From Isurus oxyrinchus (lineage: Eukaryota): a DNA stretch of 64,000 nucleotides. Of this stretch, positions 32,197 through 62,044 are shown piece by piece. Position numbers and translations under genes: made by a program. Below the pieces are notes generated by a model. That model ran no database searches and was not told the origin of the DNA. It saw only the letters and a program-made list of their open reading frames with translations. The stretch lies in assembly GCA_026770705.1 (NCBI GenBank), contig JANJGN010000039.1, forward strand, positions 1,798,001 to 1,862,000. The letters are read 5' to 3'. Position 1 is the first letter of the stretch. The number at the start of each line of letters is the position of its first letter.

Positions 32197-32830
32197 ATGG
32201 CATCCCAATATATAGTTTGGATCAAAATTTCACTTGCATCGTTATATCCACGTTCAGCTGATTCGGGCATTGAGCACAACGCCCTCACTCAGCACTTCCA
32301 GTGGATTGTATACAGACATTGTTTACTTCATTTTTGCAATTGCCCCGGGGCATTGTTGATAAAGGTATTTCGATACATTTTTGTGACTGAATGTTTTGCC
32401 CAGGTCATTTATCAGTTTAGATATTTAATGCAACAAAGAGCTGGGATTTTAGCCCAGTTCACGGCACACTGTTCCCTTGTCTCCATATCTGTTGAATCAC
32501 TTTTGGGTATTTTCTTCCTGCTTTTGTCTGCTCCAGGTAAATTTCGGGAGCTTTTGTTCCTGAAGCGATGAAAGAGTTCAACCTCAAAATGTGTTTTTTG
32601 CTACTTGGAGTGAATGGCAGACACCAAATTCCTTGTCGTTATCACAGATCCAATATTAGGAGGGAGTTGTCAGGAGGAACTCCCAGTTTTATTTATGTAC
32701 AATAGTCGGATGTTTAAGTGCACTGTGGTTCCTAAATTTTCAACAAAAATCACCTCGTTCTGCTTCACTGTCACCTTTATCTATGGTCCTTTAGAGGATA
32801 TTTCTTGCAAGAAGCACATGCATTTATTCA
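32197..32830 (+). pseudogene. GPR139/142-like GPCR pseudogene 1 (putative exon 1 ~32197-32275; exon 2 from 32537, TM1-TM3, truncated)
   Basis: After CCAG| it reads KFRELLFLKR*KSSTSKCVFCYLE*MADTKFLVVITDPIL..FCFTVTF..ISC, colinear with NLVTIVILRRRRCGLSNCVTRYLEAMAVADLLVIILDLIL..WFTVTFTLDRFVAICC of the intact gene; two in-frame TGA; LYPRSADSGI resembles YFPILALVGV. Confidence 0.7.
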
Positions 32831-32845
32831 TGCCATTTCCATGTT

Positions 32846-32872
32846 AATCTATCTATCTATTTATTTATCTAT

Positions 32873-32904
<32 letters not shown>

Positions 32905-33056
32905 CTATCTGTATATATATATGTGTGTGTATCCATCTATCCAGCCATCACTCTCACTCATTCTCTAACTCGCTTGCTGTATAACTCTCTCGTGCTCTCA
33001 TTCTCTATCACCCTTGCTCTCTGTGCATCGCTCTCTCTCCCGCTCGCTATTTCTCA
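32846..33056 (+). repeat. (TATC)n/(TA)/(TC)-rich microsatellite
   Basis: Direct reading; begins just after the recognisable part of pseudogene 1. Confidence 0.85.
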
Positions 33057-33865
33057 TTTTAGTTAATCCGTTCAATGTTAAGTCCTCTATTTGTCTAGCC
33101 ATCTGTCCATCTATCAGCCTGTAGGTCTGCCTGTCTAACGATGTTGATGATTGGTTTTCACAACGCTATCACAGATGAGTGTCCAAGCAATATAAAAGTG
33201 TCAGCGTGGTACCTTGCGTGAGGTTACACCAATTCTATGTTTGCATTACCGATTGCAAAATTTGCATATCAAACTTGTACTAGCGGGATAATTAAACTTT
33301 GTCCGCGCACGCTTTGCTTGAAGGGTTTTTTATCCTCTTCTCCTCAAGTTTTGAAATCATTGGTTGATTTCTTAATTTGTCTGTGCCCAAGGTTTGCATA
33401 CATTTTCACGTTTATATTTTTAAATGTGTTCTTCAATTGCTGGGGGTTTCTTTTTTTGGCCCACAAGATATCGCACGTTGCATTGCCAGAGGAATCCACG
33501 GGCAAATCTGGGCAGGGTATCTGTTCTCTCTAGAAGCTTGATTGTCACAGACAAGCATCCCACATGTGCCCTGTTTGGACATGGAGTGCGCCCGGAAACA
33601 GAAAACGGTGGCAAACAACTGTGCTTTCCACATTACTTCCCCTGGCGCTTCAGGCCTTTTCATTTACATATATATACTTTGATCTAAATTGATAAAAGTT
33701 TATTTCTCAGCATCAATTTCTGGGACAATCGTTCACCATCCCCTGTAGTATTCACCTGTTGCTCAGGTATATACACCCCGGAATTGTCTTGACAGCAGAC
33801 GTAATTCCTTTTTTTTGGCGTTTCAGTTTGAAAATTTTTCTCTCATAAGGAGAGCGACTGAAAGA

Positions 33866-33952
33866 ATCTGTTTGTTGAATGACGGAAACTAATTTATTTA
33901 TTCAGGTAGTATGAATGCGTTAATGGAGATTTATCTGCTATATAAATAGGAG
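33866..33952 (+). promoter_or_regulatory. Decayed paralogue of the GPCR proximal promoter with TATA box
   Basis: TTTGTT..AA.TAA.TT..TG.GT.A.TGGAG..TGCTATATAAATAGG aligns by eye to the reverse complement of 52245-52330; CACCATG at 34101-34107 follows. Confidence 0.5.
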
Positions 33953-34149
33953 TTTCTCTGAAAGTATCATCTCATGATTTCCAGCAGGCTCAGTATAACT
34001 GCTTCAGCAGCAGTTTCTTAGTGCTTATCACAGTGACTAGAATTTGTGATGCTTCATCATTTGCTGACCATTTACAAAACTGTTGCAGAATCTCTCGTGG
34101 CACCATGTACGTGGATTCACATATTCTCAGGCAAACAATATACACTGCT

Positions 34150-36290
34150 GATTTCCTTCCATTCAGGGGATATGGGCAACGTTAGCTAAGCCAGCAGTTA
34201 TTGCTTTCCGCAATTGTCCTTCAGAATTTCGTGGTGAGCTCACTTTTCCAGCTGCTGCTGCCTGTGTGGTGTAGGTTGTTTTAGATGTTCATGCACTTTG
34301 ACTGGTGAATGCCCAATTTTGAGTTGTTGAACACGTTGACATTTACCTCATTTAGCGGAATGTTTCTGCCACACAACGCGTTGGAGGGAATCCCCAAGTG
34401 AAGGCGGATTTTGTGTGCTCAGAGACTGTGTGAGGGTCAATACTATCAATACTGCCATGAGCATATCCACGTGGGTAGGTTATGGGGCGAGTTCAGTTTT
34501 GTTTTTCGATCTTGTTAATTTCCTGACCACATGCAAAAGACCCAGTCAAGCAGTTTTCTTTATCATGCGGCCAGCTCGGCCATTAGTAGTGCTAGAGATT
34601 CTCTCTTGATCATAGACACGGAAGCCCCCTACATGGAGTATATTTTTTATTGCCATCCCAAAATCTTCCTCGACTGATGATCACTCATTCATCATCTGAG
34701 GCGAACGATAGGGTTTAATCAGCAGTGGACTTTCCTTGCCCAAGTAATACCTGATCCCTTGAGATTTCATTGAATTTCCAATTACTTTTAAGGCTGTTTC
34801 AGATGCGTCACATTGAACATAAAAGTTTTGCAGCAATGGCATTTAAGAAAGCAACAAAAAATGTGCGATGGCTCGAAATGTGATTGAGAATTTAGTTTTT
34901 AGATAGGATTATTTAACTGACAGGTTGGCTTATGATGGAGCTGAGCTTTGAAAGCAATAAGAACAATTAATCTACAAAAGATAAACTGCTTGAATCGTTA
35001 AGGTAGCGGAACTGCTGTCAATCAAGCAGGGTTCTTTGTCCTAGATTAATTCAATATTTATGAATGTTATTGGGACATAACTCAACCAGACAAGTGTAGT
35101 ATTTTCCAATCACACTCTTGATTTGCGCCTTGTAGAAGAGAGACGGGCTAAATGACAAGGGTGTTTGTTGGATAATTATTTACTGTCGATGATCATTTAC
35201 TGTCGCCGGTGTGTGGTGAATATAACTTGTCAGTTTTCAGCACAGTTCTGGGTGTTGCCCAGGTGCTGTTAGTTACACATAGGCAAAGATTTCTTCAGCA
35301 TCTGTTGAGTCGCAACTTTTGCTTAATTTTTCGCAAATATGAGTGGATGCTATCTCCACCCCCCCGCTCCCCAAACCCAAACCATTTCTGAGCACATGAT
35401 GGAGAGAGATTCATTGATGAAGTGGATTAAGATGGTTTCGCCCGGACTATGACCTCAGCATCTCCTGCAGTGATATCAAGAGGCTGAGGTGGGTGACTTG
35501 CAAAAATAAAAATCCTTTGTGATCGGCATGACTCCAATCAGTAGAGACTCCCCCCAGCCCCTTACATGTATTGACTCAAATTCCGCTTCCGATCCCTGCT
35601 ACCATAAAATGACAAATGTTGTATTGATATGAAGCACACTCGCTCTCGCATCACATCATGAGTTCAGCACCAATGTCCATGTCTGTATCAAATCTGATCG
35701 AAGAGCTGCAGCTCAGTCACAACACGTAATGAGCGTCAATGAACAGCTTATGTCTTTTCGCGTAAAGGCCGGTATTTTAGCTGTACTATTACAACGTGGC
35801 TAGGAAAGATTTTTCAGGGACACTGATCTCCAATCCAATTGGTGAAATCTGACAGGACCCATGTCCTCTTCATCATCCAGCCCCTTCAGTTGTTTCTTCA
35901 TATCACGCTATGTGAATCACATAGGCTGAAGACTGGCCCCTGTGATGATGCCATCTTCAGAATGAGGCCGGAATGACCCATCTACTCCTCACTTCATCCT
36001 GAATGTGGCTGCAAATTCTTTAGCCATTTTTTAGCACTGATGTGCTGAGCTCCACAATCATTGGCGATGATGATATGGGAGGAGTGTTCTCTGCAATTGA
36101 GTTTTTGAAATATGCAACAACATTTAAGACAGCATGTGACAGGAATTGACGGCTGATATTTGCTTATTTGTTTGTGGGACCAATTAGCACTTTCTGTTGT
36201 GCGCTGCTTCCGCTGTTTTTGGCAAGCAAGTAGACTTAACTTGCAGCTTCATCAGGTTGAAACCTCGTTATTATCTGGGAATGGTGCCGC
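34150..36290 (-). mobile_element. Fragmented L2/CR1-group LINE (antisense)
   Basis: 34155-34270 is the reverse complement of the GCAATAA.TGCTGGC..CCCA.ATCCC.TGAATG tail; degraded ORF2 pieces to ~36290 with an unrelated gap at ~34780-35000. Confidence 0.65.
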
Positions 36291-36319
36291 TCCAGAGATA
36301 TTACGTATGTCGGCAAATA

Positions 36320-36590
36320 TCCTTCTCCAGTATCCTCGAACAATTGACCTCGAACACCTGGAAGGGCAAGAACATAGGGACAATATAAATTTCACATTCC
36401 TTTCCAAGTCACAAACTAAAATGACAAGGAATAATTCACCGTTAGTTGAGTGACATTGCATCAAAAACCTGGAACTCATTCTTCGAGCACTGTGTGTCGA
36501 TTTGCCTCACTTCAGCTGCAACACTATAAAACCATTCCCTTCAAGAAGAAATAGAGAAAACGGAATAAAGACTGATCTTGTCAATATACC
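36320..36590 (+). mobile_element. Same LINE family, 3' fragment (sense)
   Basis: CACCTGGAAGGGCAAG..TCCAAGTCACA..AAAACCTGGAACTC..AGCACTGTG. Confidence 0.55.
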
Positions 36591-39289
36591 GCATGGAATG
36601 GAAATGCCGCATCATGCTGAATCTATGAATAATGCGTCCTTCTGCATTGAAATGATGACCCTAGCTGACTCCTTTGTTCCGAATAGATTGAGACTAATCT
36701 TACATGCTTAAGTTATTTTAAGTAGTATCCAGTACCCTGGTCGCGAACTGAGAACATACACCTTCAAGTCACTCTTGAATATCCAAGTTTGTACACAAAA
36801 GGCTTGGCTGAAAATGTTGCCTACAAACAACCGTGCCTAACATCTTGCAACACCCCCTCCACACCCTTGACCCCCGACCCCTACCGACTTTCTATTCACA
36901 GCATTGAATGCGTCCCCATCACGTCAAGGATTGCACTTCCGATTGGATGCCGACACAGTTTTGAATCTCCCATTGCCTCCTGCCCGTTGCCATGGTCACA
37001 TTGCTGTTGGATTGATGTCGGATTTCGGCTCGTGGACAAAACCCCATCGCTCTCTGTTTGATCAGTCTAGGATCATGGGCCAAAGAGGATCATGAGCCAA
37101 AGTGCACTGTACCTGGTCTCAGTTTCTTTTCCCAACTGCAAATTATTAAGGTGTCAGGAAGAGATTGTTGTTGCTTAAAATAATGGATAATTACACAGTA
37201 TATACATATTTTAATTTCTCTATTTAATTTAGCAGGAACGCGCCTGGATATATTTTCATTGTCTGTATTCTTAATTTGATAGATACAATAATGGATCATT
37301 GTTTGCATTGTTCAATATTTCTTTCAGTTGATAATTTACCGATTCATTTTTTTGATATTTCAACGTTTAATTCGGAAATAAAACAGAAAATATATTGTTA
37401 ATTTATTGATTTATTTTATATAATTAGTCTTTTCAAACTTCGGCTACATCAACATGTAACTGTGAAAAATATTGTTTTTTTAACGAGTTTCCCTATTGGC
37501 AGTGATGGCCAAGACAGTTTGAGTGCTGATATTTTTATTAAACATCTTTGCATATTTCATGAAAGCGAATTGATAATATGGAAATGACAAATTAAATCTC
37601 AGTGTAAATGCATGATGTTGTAGGGATGTAAATAGTGGCTTTGCTCAGCTAACACCTGGATAGTAAAAGGGCAAATGAAGGCCGACTTTCATTTCTGTCG
37701 GACTTTGGTTGTTTCTTATGGATTTTGATTTTCTAATACATGCATCATTTCCAGTGCAGCCTAAGGGTCATCAGAAAATCCCTACTCAGTTTATGCACAT
37801 TATGTGACCCTGCAAGGTTGTTATGATTGGTCTGATGGGATCTGCCACAGCCAATCAATATTGGATGCTTGCAATCGCTATTCAAAATTGTGAATGAGAG
37901 TTAGCTTATCAACTCACAAGCTGATCCAGAAATGTAAACCGCTCTTTATCCTTATTCGAATTATTCTCCTTAATGTTTTCAAAGTTCGTCAAAATCGTTA
38001 ATCAACAACTTGCCTAAATAATGTGATTCAAATTATTGACTCACCAACCAATCAACATACAATGCCACATTGCATTGTTGTTTTCCTAAGTGCCAGTCTG
38101 CAACACCTATGCATCACTGTGCAGCATTTTCTATAACCTTAAAAGATCTTCATACTTCAATGAACGCTCGATTGTGAAAATGTGAATTTTCCATTTCTAA
38201 TCTGTTCCTCTCCAGCCTCACTGGAGATTTCAGTCGGAAAGCTGTTCTGAACCCTTATCTGATCCATGATAGGCTATTGCAACCAGGACTACACACCCAA
38301 AGTAATTTAAGGATATGCATTTAGTCTAGTGTTATGTAATTAATTTTGAAATGCACAAAATGATTTGATAAACGTTTGAATTAAGAAGTTACATTTCTGG
38401 CAGCATCAAATTGGTCCCTTCAGATTCACTGAGTAATGCTACCCCTCGAAATGCAAACGGATGTTATTTAAGTAAGCAACATGACTTATATGATGCAGCC
38501 AGGATCATCCAAGAATCAGAACAATTTCGCTTCATTTATACTGATGAGTGAATATAATCAGTCTTTAATATGAATGCTTTTACTGGAAACTTCCACATAA
38601 TAACAAAGCATTGAATGAATTCACTAAAAAGTTCCTGCTTTTTGAAAGAAAATTAAATATGGATCTACCAAACAATTCTAAAATGCACTGGTATTCTGTT
38701 CCGGACAAATGTACAATAAAATTTGATTAAAAATCATTACTTTAGAAATGGATTTTTTCTATATCCTCAGGAAATCCACAAATCGCAAGCTAATTTTTCC
38801 AATCATGTCTTAGCTATTTCAAGTACTTTACCAACACAAGTCGATGTGCAAATCACGGTCAATTTCTCTCTGGGTTTTCTACATTTGGTGTCCAGCAGGT
38901 ATCAGTGTTCAATTTTTCATTTCTAAACGTTTCACAAGGATGCAGCTTCTGAGATGAAAATGATTCTTTTCTGCCCTTTCAGAAACTAAGTGTTTTGTAC
39001 TTCACCCGGTCAAAAAAGGGACCTCTCTCCTGTGCCCTCAGCTGGAAAACTCTGAGTTAAATCGCAGTCGAATAATATTTCTGAATTGCTCATTCACCAT
39101 GTTTTGGTTATCGATCTAATTCCCATTCCCCCTGCATTTTACCATATCTATTCAATGTGCTTTAAAACTGGCCTGCCTAGAAAAAAACGTGGCCATGCAC
39201 AAAACTAACTCTGCCCTGAAACTGCCAATAAATATTCCCCGAGCAATATAATCAGTCTGCCTGACAATATCGCTTTTCTCCCATTTGCA

Positions 39290-39970
39290 GATTAAACTGC
39301 CCCTTGATCAGCACTGACTAAACCAGACTTCCCACCCTGCATAGTACATGTTGCTTCAGTCCTTCTGCAATGAATCAGCGAAAGATACGTTCTGAACTTT
39401 TCCTCGACAATGCTCACCTTGCCTATCAATGTCACATTACTCATCGTGCCTTAAAACTACTGACTGGTCTGTCATGAACCCCTACTTCACACCGCTAGTC
39501 TCCATAAACATACTTCCTTACTTGTATTGTCGTTGAACGCCAGCATGAGGGCGCCTGAGTAAACATTCATTCAGCCTCTTCTATGTGGGACTTTTTTGTA
39601 GTCCAGTGACCATTATAACATTTCCTGTTTATTGCAATTCCACCTATACCATCCCAAGTGCCCAGACTTGCCCAGGGCTACGTTTTTTCTTCAAACTGTC
39701 TCTCCTGTTGCACAATGAAACATCCCACCACTTACTGAATCTATTAAATACCCGGCACACTTTCCACCACTACATCTTCCAGAACAGAACTCTACTATGC
39801 TAAATCTTTATTTTGTGCCCGCATTTCACAGTCCACATTGCACCTGCACACGTGAATTCGCTCTTTCCACCTCCTTTTTCTCATTTAAAATTTAACAAGC
39901 CAAGGCTTTTTTGGACCTTCAGTCAGTCCAGTACACATTCACCCTCAGCGCGCTGAATCTTCAGTGCACA
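39290..39970 (+). mobile_element. L2-type LINE 3' fragment
   Basis: CACATTACTC..GTGCCTT..ACTGACTGG resembles the HITPVL..LHW motif of L2 ORF2. Confidence 0.45.
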
Positions 39971-40236
39971 ATAGCTGTTCAGAATTCATTGAGGGTGCTG
40001 CTCCCTAAGGATGAATAATCAATTAACGCTTAACCATCCTGCGCACTTTTACTAGGTTCAATGCATATATAAAACACGTTGCTATTGGAAATCATGCTAA
40101 ACATGCTTGCATTAAACAATTTAAAAGATGCATGAAGAAACTAAATTTGCAATGAATACCGTTTGCTGCAAACAAAAGAAAAATATGTTCATCTTTGTTG
40201 TTTATCTCATGTTATGTGTCTCTCTCTCTCTTACAG

Positions 40237-40545
40237 TGAATGGCGTTGCAATTGTGAATCTTTTGCGAGGAAAGCATGGTCTCTACAAATGCATTACATA
40301 CTATATGATGGCAATGGCAGCGGCTGGTCTCCTTATTGATTGTGCTGTTATCATAATGACCTGTTTAATTCTGGTCATTGAGGCCTGTGTGCCAGCTAGC
40401 TGCGACAATGATTTATGAGTCACATCAGCCTCTTTCTGGTTAACATTGATATCGCCCTTATGGTCACTGCGTTCTGTAATACACTCTGTCTGTGCTTCGT
40501 GGTAAGTTCTCTAATATAACTGTTTTATGTGTGGCTCTTTTTTCC
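40237..40545 (+). pseudogene. GPR139/142-like GPCR pseudogene 2 (exon 2 fragment, TM1 to ~TM4, with deletions)
   Basis: Polypyrimidine tract plus TTACAG| then (V)NGVAIVNLLRGKHGLYKCITYYMMAMAAAGLL; frameshifted PVCQLAATMIY..FWLT; same phase-1 acceptor as the intact gene. Confidence 0.85.
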
Positions 40546-43500: not shown

Positions 43501-43889
43501 ACCTGGTCAATCATTCCGATTGGATGAGGTGGCTTTCAACAATGGGGTGCGTGAATTAATAGAGTGGTTGTGGAGATGGTGGTTTGGGGTAATGTTTGTG
43601 AGTCCCTGGGTGAAGCTCCGGCTTGACTGTGCTACCTGTAAGACAGCAGGTGGAGCTCCCGGATTGGCTGAGTCTCTGAAAAATATGTAGAACCGATACT
43701 TCACGACAGTCTTTAACTGCTGTCTGATCATGGACTGACTCACCCCATAAATTAACATCTTTGTGCAGTAACTTTAATTCATCAGCATAAACTTGGCACT
43801 TTAACATATATAGTAAGGAAATCTATAGTATACTAATTCACTAATTTTAACATATACGAATGTATAAGATTCCCCGACCAGGAATGTGA

Positions 43890-44305
43890 TTTTGTGCTGG
43901 TTAGAATACATTCATACAGGGTGTTGATAATTGAGTGGATTTAGTGCTGGGTAACATATATTCAGCAGAGTGTTTGATAAGTGAGTGGGCTTACTGCTGG
44001 TTAAAATCAATTGAGCAGAGTATCGATAAGTGAATGGGATTTAGAACTGGTTAAAATACATTCAACAGAGTGTTGATAAGTGAATGGGATTTAGAGCTGT
44101 TTAAAATACATTCAACAGAGTGTTGATAAGTGAGTAATTTAGTGCTGCTGAAAATACATTCAGCAGATCATTGAGAAGTGAATGAGATTTAGTGCTGTTT
44201 AAAATACATTCAGCAGAGTGTTGATAAGTGTGTACTGGTTAAAATACATTCAGCAGATTGGTGCTAAGTGAATGGGACTTTCACTGCTTAAAATACATTC
44301 AGCTG
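43890..44305 (+). repeat. 50-bp minisatellite, ~8 copies (TTAGTGCTGGTTAAAATACATTCAGCAGAGTGTTGATAAGTGAATGGGAT)
   Basis: 50-bp period visible at 44041-44090 and 44091 onward. Confidence 0.9.
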
Positions 44306-45849: not shown

Positions 45850-46320
45850 ACTGACGGATTTCTGCACTGATGGACTATCAGTACTGAATTGTACTGCAAT
45901 ATCTGTGTTTCAGTACTGAGGAGTTGCTGCACCGCCAGAGAGTCAGTACTGAGAGAGCAGGACACCGTCAGAAGCATCAATGCTGGAGCAGAGATGAATT
46001 ACAGGATGGTCGGTACAGCTCAAGTGCTGCATTGTCGAAAGATCAGTACTGGAAGTGTGCTGTACGTTGAAGACAGGGATAGAGTGAGACAAATGCAGAG
46101 GGAGAGAGAATGAAAGACAGAGATTTTGAGAAAAAAACAAAAACAAAAATAGAGGTAACAGGAAGGCGAGATGAAGAGAGAGGGTGAGAGAAAGAGGTGG
46201 ACAGCACTGATGGAGCGCTGCACTATCGGTGGGTCAGTACGAAATCATGCTTTTCTGTCAAATTTCAAAACCGAGGGGCTGCTGCACTCTTGTAAGGGCA
46301 GCGCTGAGGGATCATTTCTG
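45850..46320 (-). repeat. Degenerate copies of the 33-bp unit flanking a purine-rich arm
   Basis: CAGTACTGAGGAGTTGCTGCAC, CAGTACTGAGAGAGCAG, GCACTGATGGAGCGCTGCACTATCGG. Confidence 0.65.
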
Positions 46321-46460
46321 TGTATTTGTCTCTCCGTCTCTCCCTCTCTTGCTCTTCCTCTCACCTTCCTGTTATCTCTCATTTTGTTTTTGTTTCTTTC
46401 TCAACATCGGTCTGTCTGTCTCTCACTCATTCTTTGTCCTTCTCTCACTCAATCCCTCTC
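46072..46460. repeat. Imperfect inverted repeat (~130-bp arms at 46072-46200 and 46330-46460)
   Basis: GAGGTAACAGGAAGG pairs with CCTTCCTGTTATCTC; TTGAGAAAAAAACAAAAACAAAAAT pairs with ATTTTGTTTTTGTTTCTTTCTCAA. Confidence 0.8.
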
Positions 46461-47847
46461 TTAAGTCCTTTTCACGTCCTCTGCCCTGTCACTCAATGTC
46501 TCCCTCTCTCCCTTTCTTATTGTACGTCTCTCCCTTTCTCACTGTTGTTCTCTTCCAGCCTCTAGTTCTCTCTTTATCTCTTTCTCGCTCTCTGTCTTTC
46601 TGCCGCTCACCAGCCAGGCATGTTCACCTCGCACTATGCCTCCACCTCTCTCTCTATCAGCCTTTTCCTCTCCCCCCACTCACACTCTTTCTATCTCTTT
46701 TTCAACCTCTTTTTGTCTTTCTCTGTCTGTTAAGCAACCTGTGTCTTTCTCTCCTTCTCTCTCTATATCAATCTGCATCTCTTTTAGGGAGATCGAGGTC
46801 CAGTTGTGCCATCTTGCCCAACACACACACTCCAAATCCCCTGCAACGCCGCCCCCTTTCTGCAGCTGAATTGATACCCACTTCCGTTGCAAACACTAGC
46901 ATTCAGTGGGAGCTGGCGTGCTGCCCATACACTGATTTCCACTGTTACCTCACTTTCACTTTGTTATCTTACTGCGTTGTTGGTTACCCTAAATCTATGC
47001 TGTGACCACATCTCCTCTGACGAGACCGCACCACGTTGCACTCTGACATTCCATTTCGGCTTCCAATCACGTGTTGGAAGGAGGATTCATGTCCAATCAC
47101 TGAGAAGCAGCGGACAGTTCCACCGGCGATTTTAGAAGTAGCCTATCAGTGGCTTAGTTTTCTGTTCATTCAGTGCGAGAGAGAAGTATAATGGCCATAT
47201 TTCGTGGGCAATGGAAGTGTGGAAATGGCTTGAGATGTGTCTCCTGCCCTTCCCGTGTGAGGGATGGGGACGATGGGCTTTGCAATCGTCCAATGGGATG
47301 GGAGAAGTAGGTCAGTGGTGAACATTCAGTGCCTCCTCTCGTCCCCGCACACCCCCACCCTCCCACCACCATCTTCCCACCCCCGCCGCATCACTGTAAA
47401 TAAGAGAAAATGCTTTAATTCCAGAACATCATGGTTTCTTTGCTCCCGCAGTGAGAGAAATTTTCCTCCTTTCAAACTGAGCAATGAGCTGATAAAATAT
47501 TGGATGCGCTGAGTCATTATGTTCCATTGATAAAGACACCTTGAACGCACTGGACACCCCCATCCTACACCCCCTCCCCCGTGCCAGCTGGCAATGTTAA
47601 ATTCAATGAGAGAATTCATGAAACTCCTAGAATTTAATACTTCCAGATAGTAAACCCACTTCCACCTCCCAAATATCCCCACCCCATCTCCCAGCCCCAT
47701 CCTCTGAAAACGTTAAGTTAAATGTTAAAATTCAGGATGTTCGCATTGATTCTTTCAGCCCAGTGATATACCCTGCTGAAAATGTGAAATAATGTCCTAG
47801 AAATGTCAGATATTCAGCTCTTCTAATCATTGAACAAAGTAAAGAAT

Positions 47848-48725
47848 TTAAGTGAAAGGATATTTCAACATTTTCCACAACTGCTCCCTGAACCTAGTCT
47901 GTGTCACAGCATAAATCCAAGTGTTTGTGCAGCAACTAAGGAGCTGCAGCATGAAGCCCAATTCCAGAACAAAAAAATCTAGATACAGGGAATTATAGCC
48001 TAAATCAGACATCCGGAACCATATGGAAAAAAACATTAGCATTCCCCATAAAACGATGAAATTGGTTGAAATATAAAAGAGTAACATGATCGATTTCTTT
48101 CGATTCTCCACCGCTGGGTCTTTGGGGCTTTGCCCACTCCTGTGAGCCCGGAGTCTCATGCGGGCCCTGCTGGTCACTAAAATATACTCTATGGTCAAAA
48201 TATTGATGAGCAGGATCAGCACAAATGGGACACACGGTGTTAGAATGTGATGGGTGAACTCGATTGTTACCCAGGCAGGATTGAACAGAACCTCCTTTCT
48301 GTAACCACAAAACGAGGGGAAGTTTACCATCCAGTACTGACCTGTGAACAAAAAATACCAGAAAATGTTCTTTGAACAGCTCAGTGCAATGACGGTTCCA
48401 AGAATCACAGCTGCCGTTTTCTCACTGCAATATTTAGTTTTTAGCTTCGGGCAACAAATGGCCACAAATCGATCCAAGGTAAAAGTGACAGTGAACCACA
48501 CAGAACAGTCAGTGGCTGCATAAAGCAGGACGGCATGGATATTACACACTGGGATTGATCGCAGGAAAGAAAAATACTTATCAAACACAATTGGAATATG
48601 CCTCAGTATTAGGTCCAGGATAATAACCAGTAGATCAGCTACTGCCATGGCCTCCAGGTAACGGGTAACACAATTGGAGAGGCCACACCTTCGGCGCCTG
48701 AGTATCACAATCGTGACCAGGTTCA
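47848..48725 (-). CDS. GPR139/GPR142-like class A GPCR, coding exon 2 (TM1 C-half to TM7 and helix 8)
   Basis: Open frame with AMAVADLL (TM2), LDRFVAICC (TM3), PFVLILLIN (TM5), FIVLW (TM6), CCTNTWIYAVTQTRFREQL (TM7/H8); acceptor TTTCTTTGCAG| at 48726. Confidence 0.93.
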
Positions 48726-49849
48726 CTGCAAAGAAAGGTAATAAACAATAAAACGCTATATCACTCTGGTACCAAAGTTGCCAGTTTAATTGAGATGCAA
48801 TGGAGATGTGTTACAGCATCCTCCAGTGTAATGAAATGAATGGTCCAGAAACATGGTATAAAAAATGTCTGTGATATCGTGGAAGGCAGGATACATTGAA
48901 AGGTTAAAATAAGGAGGTGGGAATAGAGTGGAGATGGGAGTTTGCGGGAGAGTGGGAATATTTGCGAGACAAAAAAGGAAAGGAGTAATCGGGGGATAAT
49001 CGGTGCACGTAGCGGTGATGACAGCGCATGGAGTGGCGGGCGAGCGTGCCCATTACGGGTGGTACCCATGGGTGATGGTGGAACTCATGAGTGAGAGGGG
49101 AGACGTGTTTGAGTGAGAGCAGCCAGAGGTGATGATTGCGTTCAGGCAAATAAGTGAAATGGGGTAATTTATTATTTTGCTCAACATATCTCCTGACAGG
49201 AAGGCTCTGCAGTTATGTGATGGAATGTTTCCTCTGTCCAAGGATGTTATTTTAGGAATTTCGAAGAGAGCTTTCTTGCGAATTGTCATTTCAAATTAAA
49301 TGCTAAATGATCGTTTCTTACAAAATACGAAATGCAAGTAATAATGATCATGTACACGACAAACACTCATACACCCTCACACAAAAATAATAATTTGCAG
49401 AAATGCTGCACATACTTAAATTATTACGAGTGTAGAACAGGAACAGCTCATTCCTTAATATGCTTAATGTGCTGGTTGTAAACATTGCAGGACTGAGGTC
49501 TTCATTCCTCGGTTATTGAAGACAAATTGAGTTTTTAAATATCTGGCTTTTAGTCTACAATGTGGTGGAGCCTCTGTGTTGACGATATGTACCAACATGT
49601 ACAGCCTATCAGCCTCTTTTAATGCTTGAAATCTTCAAAAATGTCTCTTAAAAATGTTATTTTGGAGTGTTTCTATTATGAGCAAAAGTCTCCCTGTCCT
49701 TCGATCTTGGTGTTGGATTTCCATTCTCCAAACACTAAAATTTATGTTGTGTACAACTTCAGAAAATGAAGTTATGTGCAAACTGGATTCTTAGTGGCAC
49801 ATCTAGACAAGCTGTCAAAGGCGAAAGCATCCAGAATATATCTTACCAC

Positions 49850-51940: not shown

Positions 51941-52115
51941 CGCTGACACCAACAAGAGCCAGGATGGGGAAGTAACCAACTTGGATTAACGAAATTACTC
52001 CCTCGATCCTTTCAGCTAATGATATCCGATCTTGAGAAAGGTAGTAAAGCCCGGAGGATAAACTCCTCTCCATTTTTGTGAAATTCCAAGATTTTGTTCT
52101 AAGTTTCTGATTCAT
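51941..52115 (-). CDS. GPR139/GPR142-like GPCR, coding exon 1 (N-terminus and TM1 N-half)
   Basis: MNQKLRTKSWNFTKMERS..IQVGYFPILALVGVS then G|GTAAG donor at 51940; 175 nt, phase 1, joins exon 2 in frame (G+TG = Val) for 350 aa total; alternative ATG at 52073. Confidence 0.88.
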
Positions 52116-52330: not shown

Positions 52331-53429
52331 GGTTCAGTTAACGCCTTGCATTCCAACAATTTTTGTCTCACAACATAGTAGAAGATTTACTTGGCGTGGA
52401 TCGGATGTATGTGGGTCGCTAAGGGATGGAAGGCTGTGAATAGAGGTTTGACTGACCATGACATGTAAAGGCACCTGGGAGTGATATCCAAGGACAGGAA
52501 GGTTTTATGTGTTCCACGCTGTTTATAAAAGCAGAGTTCCAAAGCAGAATGGAACCTGGATTGATGACCTATTTTGAAAAATCATTTATTTTGGGAGCGT
52601 GGGTTCCTTATTGAAAGAGGTTCACAGGAGCCTGATCTGACTTTGCAAGATTCACAAAAAAAATGTAATTAATCATGATCATATTACACCAGGCAACCAA
52701 ACGCTTGGTAAGTTTTCATTACAGAGACCACGAAATAAGTGGCAGAATCTCACGCTGCCCCTTTCATCCTACTAATGCCCTTATTAACCCAGGACCCCAG
52801 CGGCCAGGCACCATTATTTTTGGACCAAGGATAACGTTTGTTCAGTGGTAAAGAAGTAGATCTTCCAGTGGTCTCCTGAACATTCACTAGAAGCAATTGC
52901 ACAATTGGTATATCCCTTTAGATATCCAGAACACTCAATCTAAATTCACCTCTCCTTTAGTGTTAGAGGATTATCCACGAGTTCCTTAAGAATCTGGCAT
53001 CATGCCCAGTTGCAGAGAAACTGAGGCCTTTTCTTCAAGTCTTCACTCATTGGCAATCTGATACAACTGAAACTACAAGGTCATAGGCTCCGTGTCTTTA
53101 TGTATCTGTGCGGCTCCTCCTGATCACAAGTTGCGAGTCAACAACACAGTTTTATTTCCTACTTCTTGTTTTAGATGTGACTTCACTAAATCACCAAAAC
53201 CTTTAGTAGTCAATCTCTTCATTTCAAGATTCGTAATGCAGTCATTAAAATGTATACATTTAAACAGTGCCCAAGGCTGGCCGGCTGAATGTCACAAAAA
53301 TCCAAACTGAAACCAAGCCCAGGCTTCACATTACAAATACAATTGTAGCTTGCCTAAAATAATATCGAGTTCCCATCATTTACCCCGCAAAAGGATAAGA
53401 AATGAAAAGGTAGCTTTCAGAGGCATTTT

Positions 53430-54960
53430 CATTTCCCGTTAGCATCTCCTCTCATCACTAAATCTATCTTATCTTACAGCTTTTACAATAGCTGTAATTA
53501 TGTTCTTACAAAAAACATGCAAGTATTTTCCATAAGAATCATACTCTATACAAGTCCATTTTAATTATGGTGTTCGTCTTCCTCCATATTTGCTCTTGAT
53601 AAAGTATCTATTATTACACTGTAACTTCCAGCGAAATGGCTGAGTTTTTGATTGGAAGGGAGTGGCCTTAAACTCAACCAAAATAGTATTGGTTTCTTAT
53701 TCTGAAACTTTTCTAGGAAGGATATTGGATTTTGATCCTTATAAAATAATAATTTCTGCAGAATGTTTGGATGAGGAGACATGTTGTACTGCCAGCACTA
53801 TATTTAGATAATCCTTCTCACTTCTGAATATTTCCCCTGGTAAAAAAAAAGTACATTTCCAGTAACTTAACAGACTGGCCGTTCAATTCCCGTCTCGTCG
53901 CCCTGTGGTAAAACTGCTCCAACACTCACTAGCATTAAAAACTAGTTTAAATGGCTTCACACAATGTGATGCTGCTAAAGCCGGTGGAGTGGTGAGTACA
54001 GCATTCAAGATGCCAAAGGCACTTAGGCCATCCTTTGTCCATTCAAATATTTTTGCTTTTCTTTACCGAGATGAAATTCAGGGCAAACGTCCTATAAAAT
54101 GCATTTATGCCAAGCGACCATAACATCGCTCCATTATTCTTAAGCACTGTCAATCCTGGATTACCCATATTTTTGCTTTTCTGGAGATCAGTTTGCCTTT
54201 TCACCAGAGCTTGGCCCAAATCAATCACTTTCGTTTTGGAAAATTCACTTTATGCAAATTTTATGACTAAATTGTATGTTTGTAAATGACCATACACATC
54301 ATTCAATTGTATAAGTTCCCCCCAAGCTCAGCTGAACACAACGAACTTCTCACTATATGTATAACACTGTTAAATAATCCTTCGAAAACGCGTTCGCTTA
54401 ATCATTGACATGTTACTGTTGCATTCTTCATTCCGAACGACATGAAATTACGTTCAAAATACTCATTCGTGGTTGCAAAATTTGTTGTTTCTTTGGCCAC
54501 TTCTGTTAAACGGACTTTTCAGTTCCCCTACAATAAATCATTTCTTTTACCAGGAAACTTGCTTGCCCAATCTTTTCAGTACAGTTTTCCAATCCTGGAA
54601 TAAGATATGGATCCGCGTATGTGAATGCATTAACGTTGCCATAAACTATACACCATCATTCTGACCCATCTAGTTTAGGTGCTTTTATAAGAGGTAAGCT
54701 CCATGTACTGTGAATCGGTTGAATAATGTCATCGTCGAACATAAACTTTATTGCTTCCTTCGCTTAGATTAACGTCCCTGGAATAAGCCTGATAGATGTT
54801 GCTTTTTTGGTGACATCCCCAACATTGCAACATATAAGGACAAAGCCGTTTCATGAGTTTGTAATAACTTTCATAAGACGTCTCGGAATTATTTTCTGGA
54901 AGTGAGCGTAATATGGCAGGGGCATCAAGGGTTATCTGGCTTAAATTGCTAAATGGAAAT
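53430..54960 (-). mobile_element. Degraded CR1 LINE ORF2 fragment
   Basis: Antisense remnants of CR1 RT and C-terminal motifs, heavily mutated. Confidence 0.55.
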
Positions 54961-55479
54961 CGAAACACTGGAAGATCAAATATTATCTTATTGAATAGTG
55001 GAGCAGGTTGAAGGGACTGATTGTTAAACCGCTGTTATTATTTCTCATGCTCTTATCTAAATTTTAACGGCCTCTGAACTGTACAATATAACCACTGGAG
55101 AGTTGAGTTTAGAGTTTCCGATTTCTGGTTCATTCTTCAAATGGTTTGAGATATTAATTTCTCCCCTTTGTCCTTTCACTTATGCAAACACATTCCTCTC
55201 CTGGTTACCTTCCCAGCCATTATTTGGCTTTAACATATTGCGGGAAACATTCAGTTGAATTTCACCCTGATTGGAGTGCTCACATAGATCATTCACAGAA
55301 TTGAGTTTCTTTGTGACTTGGTAAAGGCCGATGAACCTTGCTTTTCTCTTTTTACTAGCGAAAACTCACCAAACTCAAACATTTCATTCAGCAACAAAAC
55401 TTCGAGTTTTGGAATAGATATCTGCACCTGCTTCCATTGTTTGTGGTGCATTTCTATTTTTACATGATTTCACAGGCCT

Positions 55480-56525
55480 TCCCAGCAGTTTGTCACGTTG
55501 GTCAAATGTGACATCTCGAACTTTGGTTGATAAATTTTCCTTTATAAATTTCACTGGATCTCGCGCCACTTCCTCAACTATCAGGTCAAAAGCACTGAAT
55601 GCTGTGGACTCCTTCTGGGCGTCCCTTAGAAATACCAATCGAAGGACTCTATCACACAAATGGACCATCATTGACAATATACTTTAATCGTCGTCTTTAA
55701 AGTTGGATTTCATTTTGCTAAAGTTCCTTATAACTGTGAATAAAACGCTGAAGGCTGAAAATATTTTTTCCCTCTCCAAAACTTTTCATTTTTTATTTGA
55801 ATATCTGTGACATAAAATATGAGCCTTGATCTGATTAATTTTCCTGAGGAAATCCACATATTTTAAAGAAATGAACTCGCTTTAGCCCTACAATTTTCAC
55901 CATGATCTTCCTGAAATGCACTGCCACTGGAAATCTTGTTAGAGCTACCATAATTTTTGAAAAACACTGTTTCCCACTTCTGATTTAGCTGGGGGTCCAA
56001 AACAATCTATTAAGGAAGTGCTAAATGGTTCTGTACAAGCTGGTATTGGACTGAATAAAGGATGCACTTGAATTGATGATTCTGGCTTCCCCACTATTAG
56101 CATGTATGTCATGTCTGGCAGAAACTAACAACGTCTTTATGAAACCATGGCAAATAAAATATGTTTTAGCATGTCAGCCTGTGTTTTCCTAAAGCATGCA
56201 TGAACTGCCATTGGAACACCGTAAGCAACTCGTGATGGAACGTCCACCAGATGAACTATTGTAAAGTGCCGATTGGCTCATATTTGAGGTGGTCTCCCTT
56301 TCCTCATTAGCACAGCATTTTTAAATAATAACACTCAGGTACTGATTCTGATTCAGTCTCTGATAGGGTGTTATAGCAAATTCTCTCAACTTAGGATCAG
56401 CCTGTTGCATTTCTACTAAAGTAGATGGACCAAAATGTCTTCCCCATTCTCTTTACATTCTTCAGTTTGCTCCAGTTCCTTCTAAGGCTTCCTTTTTTTG
56501 CGGGGCTGAGATCTAGCCATGAAGC
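55480..56525 (-). mobile_element. Possible internally deleted hAT (ZMYM1-like) transposase remnant
   Basis: MARSQPRKKRKP*KELEQ (N-terminus-like), QIKNEKFWR, RNFSKMK (resembles ERSFSKLK) and IVEEVAR..STKVRDVTF (hAT C-terminus-like) in order. Confidence 0.4.
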
Positions 56526-56721
56526 AGTCAAGAAACAATCCAGGATATTCCTCAAATCGCGCCTCAGCTACTTTCAGTTCCAGTTGGTGTTATAACAGTC
56601 TCGGTGAGGCTAATGTATTTGAACCAGCTGTCTCATAGCCCAAGATGTAATCAATTCCTTAGATAGTGATTTGATCCAAAGCTCCAACTGCAGCCTCTCC
56701 TCTCACTTAGTGACTTATTTT

Positions 56722-59335
56722 GGGTGGAGTCTTCTGAGCCCACTGACGGCGGGTGTGATATGTGGTGGGCATGGAAAATATGGTGGGGCCCACTTCAAGA
56801 CGGCATGAAGGCAGGTCGCAATCTTCTCCTCAGCTTACCGCTAGCGGGCTGCGTTTCTCACCATCGGTCAACGAGAAGCAGTAGCAAGTGTGATTTTATT
56901 TGATTCAGGTTGCCTACCCGCGCCTTTAAGGATCCAAGAGGCTCGAAAGTGCCATCAGCCGCTCCATGTCTTACCCGTCCTTCCCCCCCCCCCCCACCCC
57001 CCCCACCCCCCCACTGACCCCCACACAAACCGGCACTGGCTTCAAATCTGCCAGCACTTCATTGCACTGCACAACAGTTGCACTGCACACGTTGTGTAAT
57101 CTCTTCGCCAACACTGGTTATGTAGCAGTCACTGCTGGAGGCGCTGTCAGCTCCTTGCATATTCAGCATCATTGTTTGTATCAGTGTCCCCAAAGCCGAA
57201 TGTTGACAAGACACCCAGGCAGAGCAATCCTCCCTGACATTCTGAGGGGTGACCAGCACTTTCTGGGAAGCATTATGGCTTTTTACTAAAGGACCAGCGA
57301 TGATTACCACGTGTCGCTCTCTTTCGTGCTGTAGGAGGACCATGTCAGGATCATGAATCCTGGTTACCTAGCAGCACGCCTGATGGCCTACAGGGACCGT
57401 TTAAGATGGAGGAGGGAGCGACTGGTCAGGCGGCATCAGGAGCAAAATCCAGGAGTTAAAGGCTGCATGCTGACTGTGACGCTCTGGCTGTGAAAACTTT
57501 GGCCTCGGTCCTCTCAGAGGCCGAGATTTGCAGGACACCTGTCTGTTTTCATCGCCCTGCTGTGGGGCAGTGGCATCCTGCTCGACCTGTGCAGCTGGAT
57601 CTGTATAGTCTACAGGAAGAGGGAAGGCACATGGGCCTGTCACTCGCTGAGTCACTCGGTTGGATGGCCCCGGAGAGTGCACATGCTGACCTTCCTCCCC
57701 ATGTGTGCCCGAGAACCCCTTGCTGACCCAGTGGGTGGGAGGGGCAGCTGGATTGAGATCATGCATCCGAGGATCCATCTTATGTACGGTCTGCTGGACG
57801 CCAACTATGTCAGCAGCAAAAGAGTTAAGTCCATGCAGCATTGTATGAGTAGATGCTCTGGACCAAGGTCTCCATGGCAAACGCCATAATGCCAGTGTTG
57901 GACACTGCATGTTGCAATGCCGGTGCTCCTACATGAGCCTGGAGATGGACGGTCTCCTCCATCATGCATTACAATTTGAGGAGTGCAGCCGACATGACAT
58001 TCTGATGTTGGCTGGCTTACCTTTGCAGCTCCAATTCTGAGATATGACCAAGTCCAGTTGCTCAACATCTGACTCGTATTCAACAACTTTCTGGCTTCAG
58101 AACTCCGTGTGTGGAGACCAGGGAAATCCGTGCCTCCACCTGCTGTGGAGGGGGCAAGTTGTCATCGGGCTATGATCCCGAGGCTTCTCGAAACCTACGT
58201 CCCATGGAGTCGTGTGTCTCTACACTGGTAGAGGGCGTGGATGAGCGCTCTAATGCAACTTTAGGCAGGGTGCCTTCAGACTCCTCCTCAGACTTTTAAA
58301 CGGAGCTGTATGGGGGCACAGGGTCCTGGAATCCGTCGGCCGTTTCGCAGGTGTACCTGAGAAAACAAGGGGAAATAATCAGTGCATGATATTCGCAAAT
58401 GATAGAGGACACATCACACACAGAAGTGTTTGCTAATGAATGCTGCACTCCTGGATCCTCACTTGGTCGATCATTGCCGACCTCATCGTTAGCACAAGAG
58501 TGGTCCCAGTTATAATTGCCCAGATGAATGACTCTGTTGTTCAATTCCGTCAGAATGTTGATGTCCAGCAATTCGTTCCTGTCTGTGATCTAGCCTTCCT
58601 GTTGTGATCCAATTTGTCCATCATGGGTAGAGATAAGAGGGTGTGTCATGATACCTGCCAGGCCAGATGATAAGTATGCCTGGCATGTGTGGGTGGTGAG
58701 AGGCGGGATGAAGACAATGGCGGCCTGTGTGAAAGAGTCAATGTCGCCGTCCCTTGCACTGGCAGTGAGTGAGGGTCTTGAGTTTGAGTGATGGATTTTT
58801 CAGTGTGTGTTATGCATGAAGGAAAGAATGACTTACACTGGAGGGACAGAGGAGATCATTCATACTTATGTGACTCTTGGTGGTTGTCTTTATCTGCAGG
58901 TCGTTCGCCCTGACCATTGCTGTGAGCGCTGTCCAGTCTGGGTTTGTGACATTGATGCCCATCCTCCAGATGGTAGGGCACATCCCGGCTGCCCTCCAGC
59001 AGTATCTCGAGGGATCCATCATTTAAGAGGGTGGCTGCAGGCATTTTACCTTTGTTGGCCTTATCTCCCAGGCAGAAGTGGTGAGCTGGTGGTGATCAGC
59101 GATTTGCTGAGGTCTGCATTGTAAAGGCAACGGCCAGGGTGATGCAAAAGCGCTTTAATGTTGAGTGATCAAATCGAAGTTCTGCCACCTTGGAAACAAT
59201 GTGTTTATTATGCATAAATAATAAAGTGGTCTTGGGAAGTTATGGCATGAAAACCCGCCATTTTTGTCGGTGGCCAGGGCTCCATTTCACCAGCATGCTA
59301 GCGCAATTAGAGCAATTATGGGGGAATTCCAGCCA
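56722..59335 (-). mobile_element. Harbinger-type element carrying a decayed Myb/SANT DNA-binding ORF
   Basis: AATLLNDGSLEILLE..RDV and VTNPDWTALTAMVRAN..KTTT..MNDLL (58830-59044) resemble APRFSD.SLE.LL..W..VA..VSA..RT..QCRKR.NDL; degenerate TIR-like ends GGGTGGAGTCTT and GGAATTCCAGCC. Confidence 0.7.
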
Positions 59336-59684
59336 CTGAAACAATGTGTTAAGAAAGAATAAGTTATTTTGGCTGTGGGCTTTCAGAGCCGAGGCACCAA
59401 CGAAAGGAGCACAGAAGCCCTTTTGCAGCCAGAGCCAGCCCACAGCTGGAGGTGAATATAAGCTACTCTGAAGTCATCGACCTGCAGGGATTGAGATCCC
59501 ATGACTATTTGTTGTGCCTGAACGAAAAGAATCATCAGTTCTTTCATTGATCAGTTTTGGGAGGCCAAGATGACGCCATTCAAGAATTGCTCCATTTTTG
59601 CTTACCCCTTGCAATATTGATTTTTGACCTTTGGGAGAATTCCAATTTTTCCAGTGTATTTTTGTGCACATGAGTGTTTGCGTA

Positions 59685-59977
59685 TCTGTCTCACTCTCTA
59701 CCTCTCACTCCATATGCCTCTCTCTGTTCAGGTCTTTCTCTTTGACTACTTCTCTCTCTCTCTTTGTTTTTCTATCTCTCATCTCTCTCTTTCTTTCCCC
59801 CTCTCTCTTAGATAAATGTATCTCTAATTTTCCTTTTCAGTTCCCAAATTAACTGGGAATTATCCTTGACCCTTCGCCCCTCGTTTCCTGCTGGAATTTG
59901 TCTGGCAAATGTGTTTGTGTTTGTTTGAGTATATTTGCCTACGTTTGTGTGCCTGTGTGTGTGTGTTAACATATGTG

Positions 59978-60008
<31 letters not shown>

Positions 60009-60780
60009 TAATCCATGTGTGTGTTTATGTATGTGTGTGTGCACACTTGTCTGTCAATGTGTGTGTCTGTGTTTGCATTTGTTGGTCTGTGTGTATGTCT
60101 CTGTGCACGTACACATGCGCGTGTGTGCGTGGAAGTGCTCAAACGTATGTGTGAGTGACAGAGATAGAGAGAGAAAGAGAGAGAGTCTTTGAGTATCTTG
60201 TAAAAGTGGTTAGTATAACTTCATATTCAATACTGCATGTTAACAACGTTTGCCTATCCGTTTAACAGGACTGGTCTTATAATTAACAAACATGCTTGTT
60301 ATTTACTGCACGAAGCTTGATTAACGTCTCTTTTATTCTAACAGTAGCAAAAGTAAACAGTTGGCTATTTTAGTGTGTGAATCAGTCTTTTAAACTATTG
60401 ATATGACCTATGGAGTAGTGGGGTTAAATATACTGCACTCGTATCCCAATTGATCGAAACAGGCTATGTCTCTCTCTGCCACTCCTCTGCTGTCTTGTAC
60501 TCTCATTCTCTCTCTGCTTATCTGTCTCACTGTCTATCTCTCACTCCATATGCCTCTCTCTGTTCAGCCCATTCTCTTCGACTCTCTCTCTCTCTCTCTT
60601 TGTTTTTCTATCTCTCATCTCTCTCTCTCTCTCTCTTTCTTTGCCCCTCTCTCTTAGATAAATGTATCTCTAATTTTCCTTTTCAGTTCCCAAATTAACT
60701 GGGATTTATTCCTTGACCCTTCGCCCCTCACTTCTTGCTGGAATTTGTGGGGTTGTGTGATGGAAATTTGTCTGACAAAT
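59685..60780 (+). repeat. ~220-bp direct duplication (59685-59905 and 60520-60780) flanking a (GT)n/(GA)n tract
   Basis: CTCACTCCATATGCCTCTCTCTGTTCAG..TAGATAAATGTATCTCTAATTTTCCTTTTCAGTTCCCAAATTAACTGGGA occurs twice. Confidence 0.9.
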
Positions 60781-61151
60781 GAAAGGGTAGTTTTGCCATG
60801 TTGTTGAATTTAATTGGAATCAGTGTGACGAATGAGAATGCTGGACAGTAGGAAGTGCACTTTGGAGGGGACACAGCCAGGGCAGGGGTTTTCTCTCCAA
60901 CCAGGGTGAGGGATTTCTGTGATGCCAAAGCTCCCATGAGAGGGAAGAGATGTCTTATTACTGATATTTCTTCCTTTCAATCATTGTGAGGCTGTTGCAC
61001 GATGAACAGTTGAACTGGCAAAAGAGCGAGGACGGCTGACTGGATGTGTGCCCCCACTCCACACCCTCCATCTCTGCAGCTCCAGCCGCTGTGGTTCTGT
61101 AATTAACTGAGAACCTGCTGAAACGCTCAGTGATTTGTTTATTTTTATTGT

Positions 61152-62044
61152 TTAATATGTTGAAATAATTGGGGTGAAGAGATGTTGCAGCATATTGTTA
61201 AATGCTCCGTGAACTTAGCCTGCTCTCTCTGTAAATCCCAGTGTTTGTGCAACAACCCAGGAGCTGCAGCATGAAGCCTAATTCCTGAACAAAAGCATAG
61301 AGATACATAGACTTATAGCACAAATTCCACATCAGTCTCCAAATAGAAGAAACAATTGACATTGAACATAACAGGAAGAAATTGGCTGAGATAACAGACA
61401 GAACATTCATAGATTTCCTTCTACCCACCATCTATGGATCGCCGGGATTATCCCACTTCTGTGAGCCTGGAATCCCCTGTGTTCTCTGCTTTTCATTAAA
61501 ATCTGCTTTACCATGAAAACATTGAGCAGCAGAATCAGGTTAAATGGAAAGCACGATGTTAGAATATGTTGGAAGCACTCAACTGCTACCCAGAACAGAG
61601 ATTCCTGAATATCCCATGTGAAATCCCTGAAACCAGGGGGCGTTCATCAGCCGATATGCAACTGTTATCATAATATATGAGAAAATGTTATTTGAACAGC
61701 TCAGCACAATCAATGTTCCCAGAAGCACAGTGGCTATTTTCTCACTGCAATATTCAGTTTTCAGCTTCAGGGAACAACGGGCCACAAATCCCTCAAAGGT
61801 GAAAGTGACGGTGAAACAGACAGGACAGTCTGTGGCTGCATAAAGCAAGATGGTGTGGATATTACACACGTGGATGGAGTTCCAGAAGTAAAACTGTTCC
61901 TTAAACAAGAATGGAATGTGCCTTATTATCACATCAGGAATAACGACCATTCGTCAGCCACAGCCATGGCCACCAGGTACTGAGTTACACATTTGGACAG
62001 ACCACATCTGTTGCTCCTGAGGATCACAATCATGACAAAGTTCG
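61152..62044 (-). pseudogene. GPR139/142-like GPCR pseudogene 3 (complete exon 2, disrupted)
   Basis: GGCAG| then (A)NFVMIVILRSNRCGLSKCVTQYLVAMAVAD; VCNIHTILLYAATDC; ELGFMLQLLGCCTNTGIY; at least 4 frameshifts, a TAG after DP (~61432) and DRF changed to EGF; exon 1 not in the window. Confidence 0.92.

Follow-up and report, generated by a model that had tools for sequence, protein, structure and literature searches.

GPR139 and GPR142 have the FMRFamide/myosuppressin receptors as their protostome sister group (PMC8557429), and the nematode srw family, which derives from FMRFamide/myosuppressin receptors and shows rapid turnover, has been proposed to sense environmental peptides (PMC2576165). 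GPR139 has two exons, its zebrafish and human proteins are 70% identical, and its Trp/Phe site consists of E3.32, F3.33, H5x43, W6.48, R6.51 and N7x38 (PMC7318219). Beside GPR139 and GPR142 stand the orphan receptors GPR210A and GPR210B of fish and coelacanth; the Ensembl genomes listed by the study that named them include no shark, and it reports no expansion (PMC6504862). Here we describe a group of GPR139-like receptor loci in a 64,000-nt stretch of Isurus oxyrinchus DNA (assembly GCA_026770705.1, contig JANJGN010000039.1, positions 1,798,001 to 1,862,000), termed the window, with position 1 as its first letter. [quoted passage not shown] Databases already contain the genes, labelled automatically; the expansion itself, a GPCR repertoire that is specific to one lineage and stems from a parent not expected to give rise to one, appears to be undescribed.

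Receptor loci of the window

Both strands of the whole window were scanned with a frameshift-aware profile built from 114 named shark relatives, leaving out the 3 unnamed and 3 long, apparently fused sequences among the best 120; the highest score of eight reversed or shuffled 64-kb controls, 24.6 bits, served as null. The window is repeat-rich, with about 43% GC and a single long open reading frame (ORF; 48810-47851, minus strand). Six family loci were detected across 45 kb, A, B, E and F on the minus strand and C and D on the plus strand, and the window held no further family peak above 24 bits apart from trailing artefacts of two strong matches. The loci and two non-coding blocks shared between them are as follows (TM, transmembrane helix; bits, profile score):

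51941..52115, minus strand: gene A exon 1, N-terminus and first half of TM1, phase-1 GT donor; 66 bits
48726..51940, minus strand: gene A intron, 3215 nt, GT-AG, phase 1, inside TM1
47848..48725, minus strand: gene A exon 2, remainder of TM1 to helix 8, open; Pfam 7tm_1 E 5e-14; 604 bits
61164..62044, minus strand: pseudogene B, full-length exon 2 of A's subfamily with about 5 frameshifts and 1 stop; 414 bits
40237..40451, plus strand: fragment C, acceptor and TM1-TM3 of another subfamily, 2 frameshifts; 52 bits
32537..32814, plus strand: fragment D, acceptor and TM1-TM3, 2 stops, about 31% identity to its best relatives; 39.5 bits
17242..17491, minus strand: E, orphan exon 1, GT donor intact, 1 in-frame stop; 66 bits
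43675..43860, minus strand: fragment F, TM6 end, TM7 and helix 8, 2 stops; 44 bits
52267..52350 (A, minus strand) and 17615-17697 (E): upstream non-coding block, candidate proximal promoter element; score 43 against a maximum of 30 in 300 shuffles
49513..49566 (A, minus strand) and about 62816-62869 (B): intron block common to A and B; score 38 against a maximum of 30 in 60 shuffles

A preliminary description of this DNA had recognized, within 30 kb (32197..62044), one intact gene and three pseudogenes of different ages sharing a TM1-TM3 template and a phase-1 acceptor at the TM1 asparagine. The template and the acceptor were confirmed by the profile scan and by the register of the splice site: in A, B, C and D, a pyrimidine tract and CAG end two bases 5' of the Asn1.50 codon (now a lysine codon in D), and a site of this kind occurs at 0.6% of window positions. 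The inventory required revision. A is indeed open and B, C and D are broken, all four inside that range, but E (17.2-17.5 kb) and F (43.7-43.9 kb) are two further remnants, E outside the range, the first stretch of the range (32197-32536) is not family-like, and A has an early stop.

When spliced (52115-51941 joined to 48725-47848), gene A gives an open frame of 350 amino acids (aa). The best matches of exon 1 are shark proteins of A's own subfamily, and it encodes 14-aa repeat units with N-glycosylation sequons. These 42-bp repeats lie at 52169-52070 and, in E, at 17497-17390 (minus strand); the number of units varies in the subfamily, a strict pattern finding 1-5 of them in 37 of the 117 named relatives. 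The only Pfam family above cut-off on A is 7tm_1. The signalling core is kept (Asp2.50, Asp-Arg-Phe at 3.49-3.51, Cys3.25 with the cysteine of extracellular loop 2 (ECL2), Pro5.50, Trp6.48, Asn7.49 and Tyr7.53), and Pro6.50 and Pro7.50 are absent. Since its AlphaFold model folds well (predicted local distance difference test, pLDDT, 86.6) with helix 8 complete, A is probably still functional. A fold search with this model returned class A GPCRs in 50 of 50 listed matches, with GPR139 (7vug) at rank 9 and not singled out.

A and B share 72% DNA identity and an intron block and fall in one subfamily clade in both of the trees described below; only these two and probably E, which has an upstream block in common with A, make up one recent lineage. 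E is 74% identical to A exon 1 over 121 nt. B is altered at Arg3.50, Trp3.41 and Trp6.48, and for the pair A and B the ratio of non-synonymous to synonymous change (dN/dS) comes to 0.52 over 265 codons (bootstrap 0.37-0.75), B being partly neutral. C scores 121 against other subfamilies (P0229 of Heptranchias, P0310-12 of Chiloscyllium) versus 80 against A. The subfamily of D is uncertain, with scores of 94 for P0229 (another subfamily; 28 of 88 identities, ungapped), 95 for P0068 (A's subfamily) and 68 for A. C, and less certainly D, is better matched by other subfamilies, so that divergence from A mixes time since death with subfamily distance, and the proposed difference in age is not one of age alone.

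The intron block shared by A and B and the upstream block shared by A and E indicate duplication at the DNA level: the duplicated segments carried along the intron and the upstream, candidate promoter region, and many copies decay. Retroposition is ruled out by these two blocks and the common acceptors. Sequencing error as the source of the B frameshifts is likewise ruled out, by the stop and the changed Arg3.50, Trp3.41 and Trp6.48, and a chance match at D by its 39.5 bits versus the null maximum of 24.6 and by the acceptor in exact register; the DNA match of D to B and C, taken alone, is not above shuffles. The idea that C and F are the two ends of one inverted gene is not supported, their best matches being different. 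Within the window, neither the family scan nor a TM1 profile, which matched just those of A and E, found an exon 1 belonging to B, C or D, and no exon 2 was found downstream of E. An assembly gap of 263 N (63664-63926) lies in a CA-rich repeat, and B exon 1 may lie past it. Fragment F adjoins a 50-bp tandem array (43882-44303) where the remaining part of the gene is missing, and an ATCT microsatellite (32847-32910) follows the break point of D. As for an OR-type promoter motif, a TAAT site in the upstream block of A is not kept in E when compared by eye.

The elasmobranch expansion and its relatives

In a protein search of sequences clustered at 90% identity, 1353 of 1833 candidate clusters matched at E<=0.001, of which the best 120 were taken in detail. 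Among these, 117 are named, all as probable or putative GPR139 and all from sharks (10 species); identity to A is 65-73%, bar one at 49%, and none exceeds 73%. The horn shark contributes at least 53 clusters, with 48 distinct sequences at <95% and 44 at <90% identity over exon 2, Heptranchias 27 and the whale shark 13 (10 of its 13 listed matches on probably one chromosome), although haplotype duplicates may account for some of these clusters. Of the 114 relatives, 92 have their nearest neighbour within their own species, which points to lineage-specific duplication under sparse species sampling. In a library clustered at 50% identity, 109 representatives (fragments included) reached E<=1e-30. 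Of 20 family-level representatives that were looked up, 17 carry a name, each belonging to a shark, a skate or an electric ray; no chimaera protein was among the matches listed. Across the 114 paralogues, which average about 73% identity, conservation reaches 95% or more in 119 columns. Intact family members remain under purifying selection. The preliminary description had put forward a multi-copy family of cartilaginous fish, annotated as 'probable GPR139' and expanding in tandem with rapid turnover, and the 117 shark names, the six loci of the window and the same-species neighbours agree with it. Copies are not few (at least 44-48 distinct sequences in the horn shark), nor is A a one-to-one orthologue of GPR139, with about 25% identity and many paralogues, so that two of the three outcomes by which the description would have been refuted did not occur.

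Human GPR139 is the only solved-structure match of A (32 bits; by manual count, 71 of 287 query positions identical) and the top match of the family profile (101 bits versus 78 for the next, NTSR1), and the kinship is therefore real; the sequence kin are neuropeptide-type receptors (GPR139, neurotensin, ghrelin, TRH). Two apparently single-copy lineages, which bear the same automatic name and lie near the expansion, outscore A on human GPR139 while remaining distant from it. The first comprises amphibians and sturgeon, with about one cluster per species among 25 matches (53 bits), and the second coelacanth, ray-finned fish, amphibians and reptiles, together with three sharks in which it occurs once each (69 bits). 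In FastTree on 90 rows and a quick IQ-TREE run (LG+G4) on 42 rows, a single branch separates the shark expansion from the other rows, and so it does for either of these two lineages, with support of 93/100/100 and 83/100/100, respectively; both trees are without true GPR139 or GPR142, and the long mollusc outgroup is unstable and falls among or beside the shark rows, so that the root is not fixed. The expansion probably lies closer to the paralogues named 'probable GPR139' that amphibians, sturgeon, coelacanth and teleosts have in apparently single copy than to GPR139 or GPR142. Given their distribution, the single-copy lineages, which occupy the same position beside GPR139/142, are probably the GPR210 group of Rinne et al. 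(PMC6504862), whose coelacanth Ensembl identifiers were not found in the supplement of that study. Two members of a single-copy relative, P0318 of the zebra shark and P0416 of a frog, are both annotated as TMEM183A isoforms, which suggests conserved synteny with TMEM183A.

A resembles GPR139 and GPR142 in having two coding exons, in keeping His5.42, Trp6.48 and a tyrosine in place of Phe3.33, and in lacking Pro7.50; the GPR139 intron presumably lies in TM1, as does the phase-1 intron of A. It differs from GPR139 in its Cys3.25-ECL2 pair (GPR139 has no cysteine at 3.25 in the structure alignment) and its longer intracellular loop 3, and the shark copies number dozens to hundreds as against one for GPR139 or GPR142.

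No published account of the expansion was found in the open-access full text of PMC and bioRxiv; subscription journals and most supplements lay outside this search, and an earlier mention is possible. By title and abstract, none of the open-access papers naming both 'GPR139' and 'shark' concerns the expansion, and the name 'GPR210' turned up in a single relevant paper. PMC12208981 handles GPR139 as a conserved gene. The family name was not found in the supplement files searched of PMC10529500 (1 file), PMC8455134 (12 of 24), PMC11589584 (4 of 5) and PMC11406177 (2), and the main text of PMC10620051 contains no GPCR terms.

Ligand pocket and candidate functions

Per-site diversity was compared between 25 pocket positions, 38 other positions of the outer TM half and 25 positions of the G-protein face. 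Among 21 named shark subfamily representatives it amounted to 0.78, 0.66 and 0.26, respectively (pocket versus non-pocket p=0.002), the pocket positions being those of a generic class A list, with numbers counted off from anchor residues, and the sites not being independent; a separate run on 40 partly unnamed representatives gave the same pattern. The single-copy lineages show the reverse in the pocket, with 0.23/0.42/0.17 (86 sequences) and 0.04/0.21/0.15 (23 sequences). Across subfamilies, the aligned sequences thus show a ligand side that has diversified and a G-protein side that has been held, and the pocket diversity fits a repertoire for many ligands. The pocket of the amphibian and sturgeon orphan receptor (P0247, P0283-P0302), by comparison, is almost invariant (diversity 0.04), implying a conserved ligand.

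In A's own subfamily, whose sequences were chosen for likeness to A, the deep pocket is nearly fixed (Asp2.57, Arg2.61, His3.28, Asp3.37, Glu5.39, His5.42, Trp6.48 and Glu7.36) and variation lies at the rim (5.43, 6.58, 7.32, 7.35) and in the loops. This arrangement of a fixed acidic and aromatic floor below a variable rim points away from free Trp or Phe and towards ligands that have a basic core in common and differ in an extension, and we infer that the ligand of this subfamily has a basic or peptide core. The suggestion in the preliminary description of an amino-acid ligand by analogy with GPR139 is not supported: at the six positions of the GPR139 site A carries L, Y, H, W, L and F, Glu3.32, Arg6.51 and Asn7.39 being replaced by Leu, Leu and Phe, and with three of six residues lost, binding of free aromatic amino acids in the manner of GPR139 is unlikely. 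Position 6.51 is basic in both single-copy lineages and leucine in A.

We tentatively propose, rating it a little short of an even chance, that the repertoire senses exogenous chemicals. Each subfamily would then serve a different ligand class, the ligands most likely being peptides or amine-bearing molecules, and the receptors would sit in chemosensory cells of nose, taste, skin, gill or gut and signal via Gq or Gi/o, as GPR139 does. Such a family may be an overlooked chemical sense of sharks and rays. That the many ligands would be environmental ones, detected in sensory cells, is a further inference, for which the nematode srw family (PF10324) is a precedent: it too is a birth-and-death expansion from the same neuropeptide-receptor stock, and srw-bearing clusters occur among the Atlas look-alikes, although srw expanded independently in another phylum and A has no PF10324 match. 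The OR, TAAR, V1R/ORA and V2R families and the formyl-peptide receptors (FPRs) offer a similar picture of tandem clusters, pseudogenes, lineage-specific turnover, variable pocket and conserved G-protein face, without a family-level sequence relationship to the expansion; A gave no match to OR, TAAR, V1R or V2R families, Pfam returning only 7tm_1 and the named sequences among its best 120 matches all being GPR139-like.

A narrower version, which we regard as doubtful, would make the expansion a further vertebrate olfactory family, an elasmobranch-only co-option of a neuropeptide-type receptor expressed one per neuron in Go/TRPC2 microvillous neurons and outnumbering the V2Rs. Very small numbers of olfactory receptors have been attributed to sharks, the catshark having 2 canonical ORs, a few TAARs and V1Rs and 32 canonical V2Rs (PMC11979771). 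The last number is exceeded by the horn-shark set of at least 44-48 distinct sequences. These low counts come from surveys of only the four known families, so that a GPR139-like expansion is not covered by either PMC10116579 or PMC11979771. Were the olfactory version true, it would resolve how sharks smell well despite a seemingly tiny receptor repertoire. In at least one shark the family is larger than the whole catshark V2R set, its turnover is sensory-like and it lies hidden under an automatic name. Whatever is sensed, this is apparently a very large GPCR expansion for which no description was found, and the shared name 'probable GPR139' misleads any search for the shark GPR139 orthologue.

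Besides the provisos attached above to the pocket list and to the root of the trees, several observations weigh against a sensory function. Pocket divergence points to many ligands, not to external ones. Within A's subfamily, pocket positions vary no more than the remaining sites do (0.23 versus 0.29, p=0.09), so many copies may be redundant. ORs and TAARs generally lack a coding intron, and the expansion keeps one. The catshark nose reportedly consists of Go/TRPC2 microvillous neurons with V2Rs as the main receptor family (PMC10116579), and the top 50 olfactory-specific catshark genes include no GPCR, V2Rs also being missing (PMC11979771). Gene A itself is open yet not pristine and may be relaxed: its stop lies 7 codons ahead of the usual family stop, leaving 1 residue past the last conserved motif versus 4-20 in 86 of the 114 relatives where that motif was located, and it deviates at 7 of the 119 near-invariant columns, a number of departures matched or surpassed by 6 of 114 relatives.

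The same features could belong to sensors of immunity or of the body barrier, comparable to formyl-peptide or Mas-related receptors on leukocytes, mast-like cells and skin and directed at microbial or damage peptides. Lineage-specific turnover and pocket divergence are equally typical of immune GPCR families, and an acidic pocket would suit cationic peptides; several catshark ORs, moreover, are expressed in spleen and not in the nose (PMC11979771). We consider this unlikely, as the sequence kin are neuropeptide-type receptors and not chemokine or formyl-peptide receptors; the family also goes unnamed in one small supplement file of a nurse-shark spleen single-nucleus study, a weak indication.

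Rather unlikely, too, are endogenous receptors of the neuro- or entero-endocrine kind, which, like GPR139 and GPR142, would respond in brain or gut to peptides or metabolites of internal origin, GPR139 being a brain receptor and GPR142 a receptor of pancreas and gut (PMC7318219). A case has been made for a peptide with aromatic C-terminus as the ancestral ligand (PMC8557429), and A's subfamily keeps Trp6.48 and His5.42. Receptors for endogenous ligands are, however, usually stable in number, as are the single-copy relatives with their conserved pocket, unlike the expansion. An expanded peptide family to match it is not known.

Alternatively, the copy number may mostly reflect neutral drift, a few functional genes having been amplified by segmental duplication in repeat-rich DNA with most copies, perhaps A among them, redundant or dying. 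Five of the six window loci are dead, A shows the early stop and the seven departures from conserved sites, the A-B dN/dS of 0.52 (0.37-0.75) includes a partly neutral B, the pocket is near-invariant within A's subfamily and the region is rich in tandem repeats. Drift as the main explanation is quite improbable all the same, since many deep subfamilies with distinct pockets are common to sharks, skates and rays and the 119 near-invariant columns persist among 114 paralogues of about 73% mean identity, both of which need long-lasting selection.

That A is simply the shark orthologue of GPR139 or GPR142 with a few decayed local copies, as its best solved-structure match, the database names of all its relatives and the two-exon structure common to these genes might suggest, is scarcely conceivable beside its roughly 25% identity to human GPR139 (versus 70% for zebrafish GPR139), the higher scores of other shark and amphibian paralogues on GPR139 (69 and 53 bits versus 32), the dozens of paralogues per species and the lost pocket residues.

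Other features of the window

In a search for flanking genes that could serve for synteny, none of 107 stop-to-stop ORFs of at least 82 aa gave a Pfam match above cut-off and no tRNA was found in the window. Positions 1929-5200 hold degenerate 33-bp repeat arrays in both orientations, with long open frames of 11-aa repeats and no Pfam match, and are probably satellite DNA; a large array of 55-56-bp satellite units with a core of about 35 copies occupies 5840-9920. The segment 5629-5727 found a match in the N-terminal extension, not part of the receptor, that one database protein carries. It and the segment at about 29740-30245, both without a Pfam match, are presumably remnants of LINE-type retroelements. 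An imperfect inverted repeat (67% over 412 nt) lies in purine/pyrimidine-rich DNA at 46070-46462, and 59679-59901 and 60515-60748 form a local direct duplication with 89% identity.

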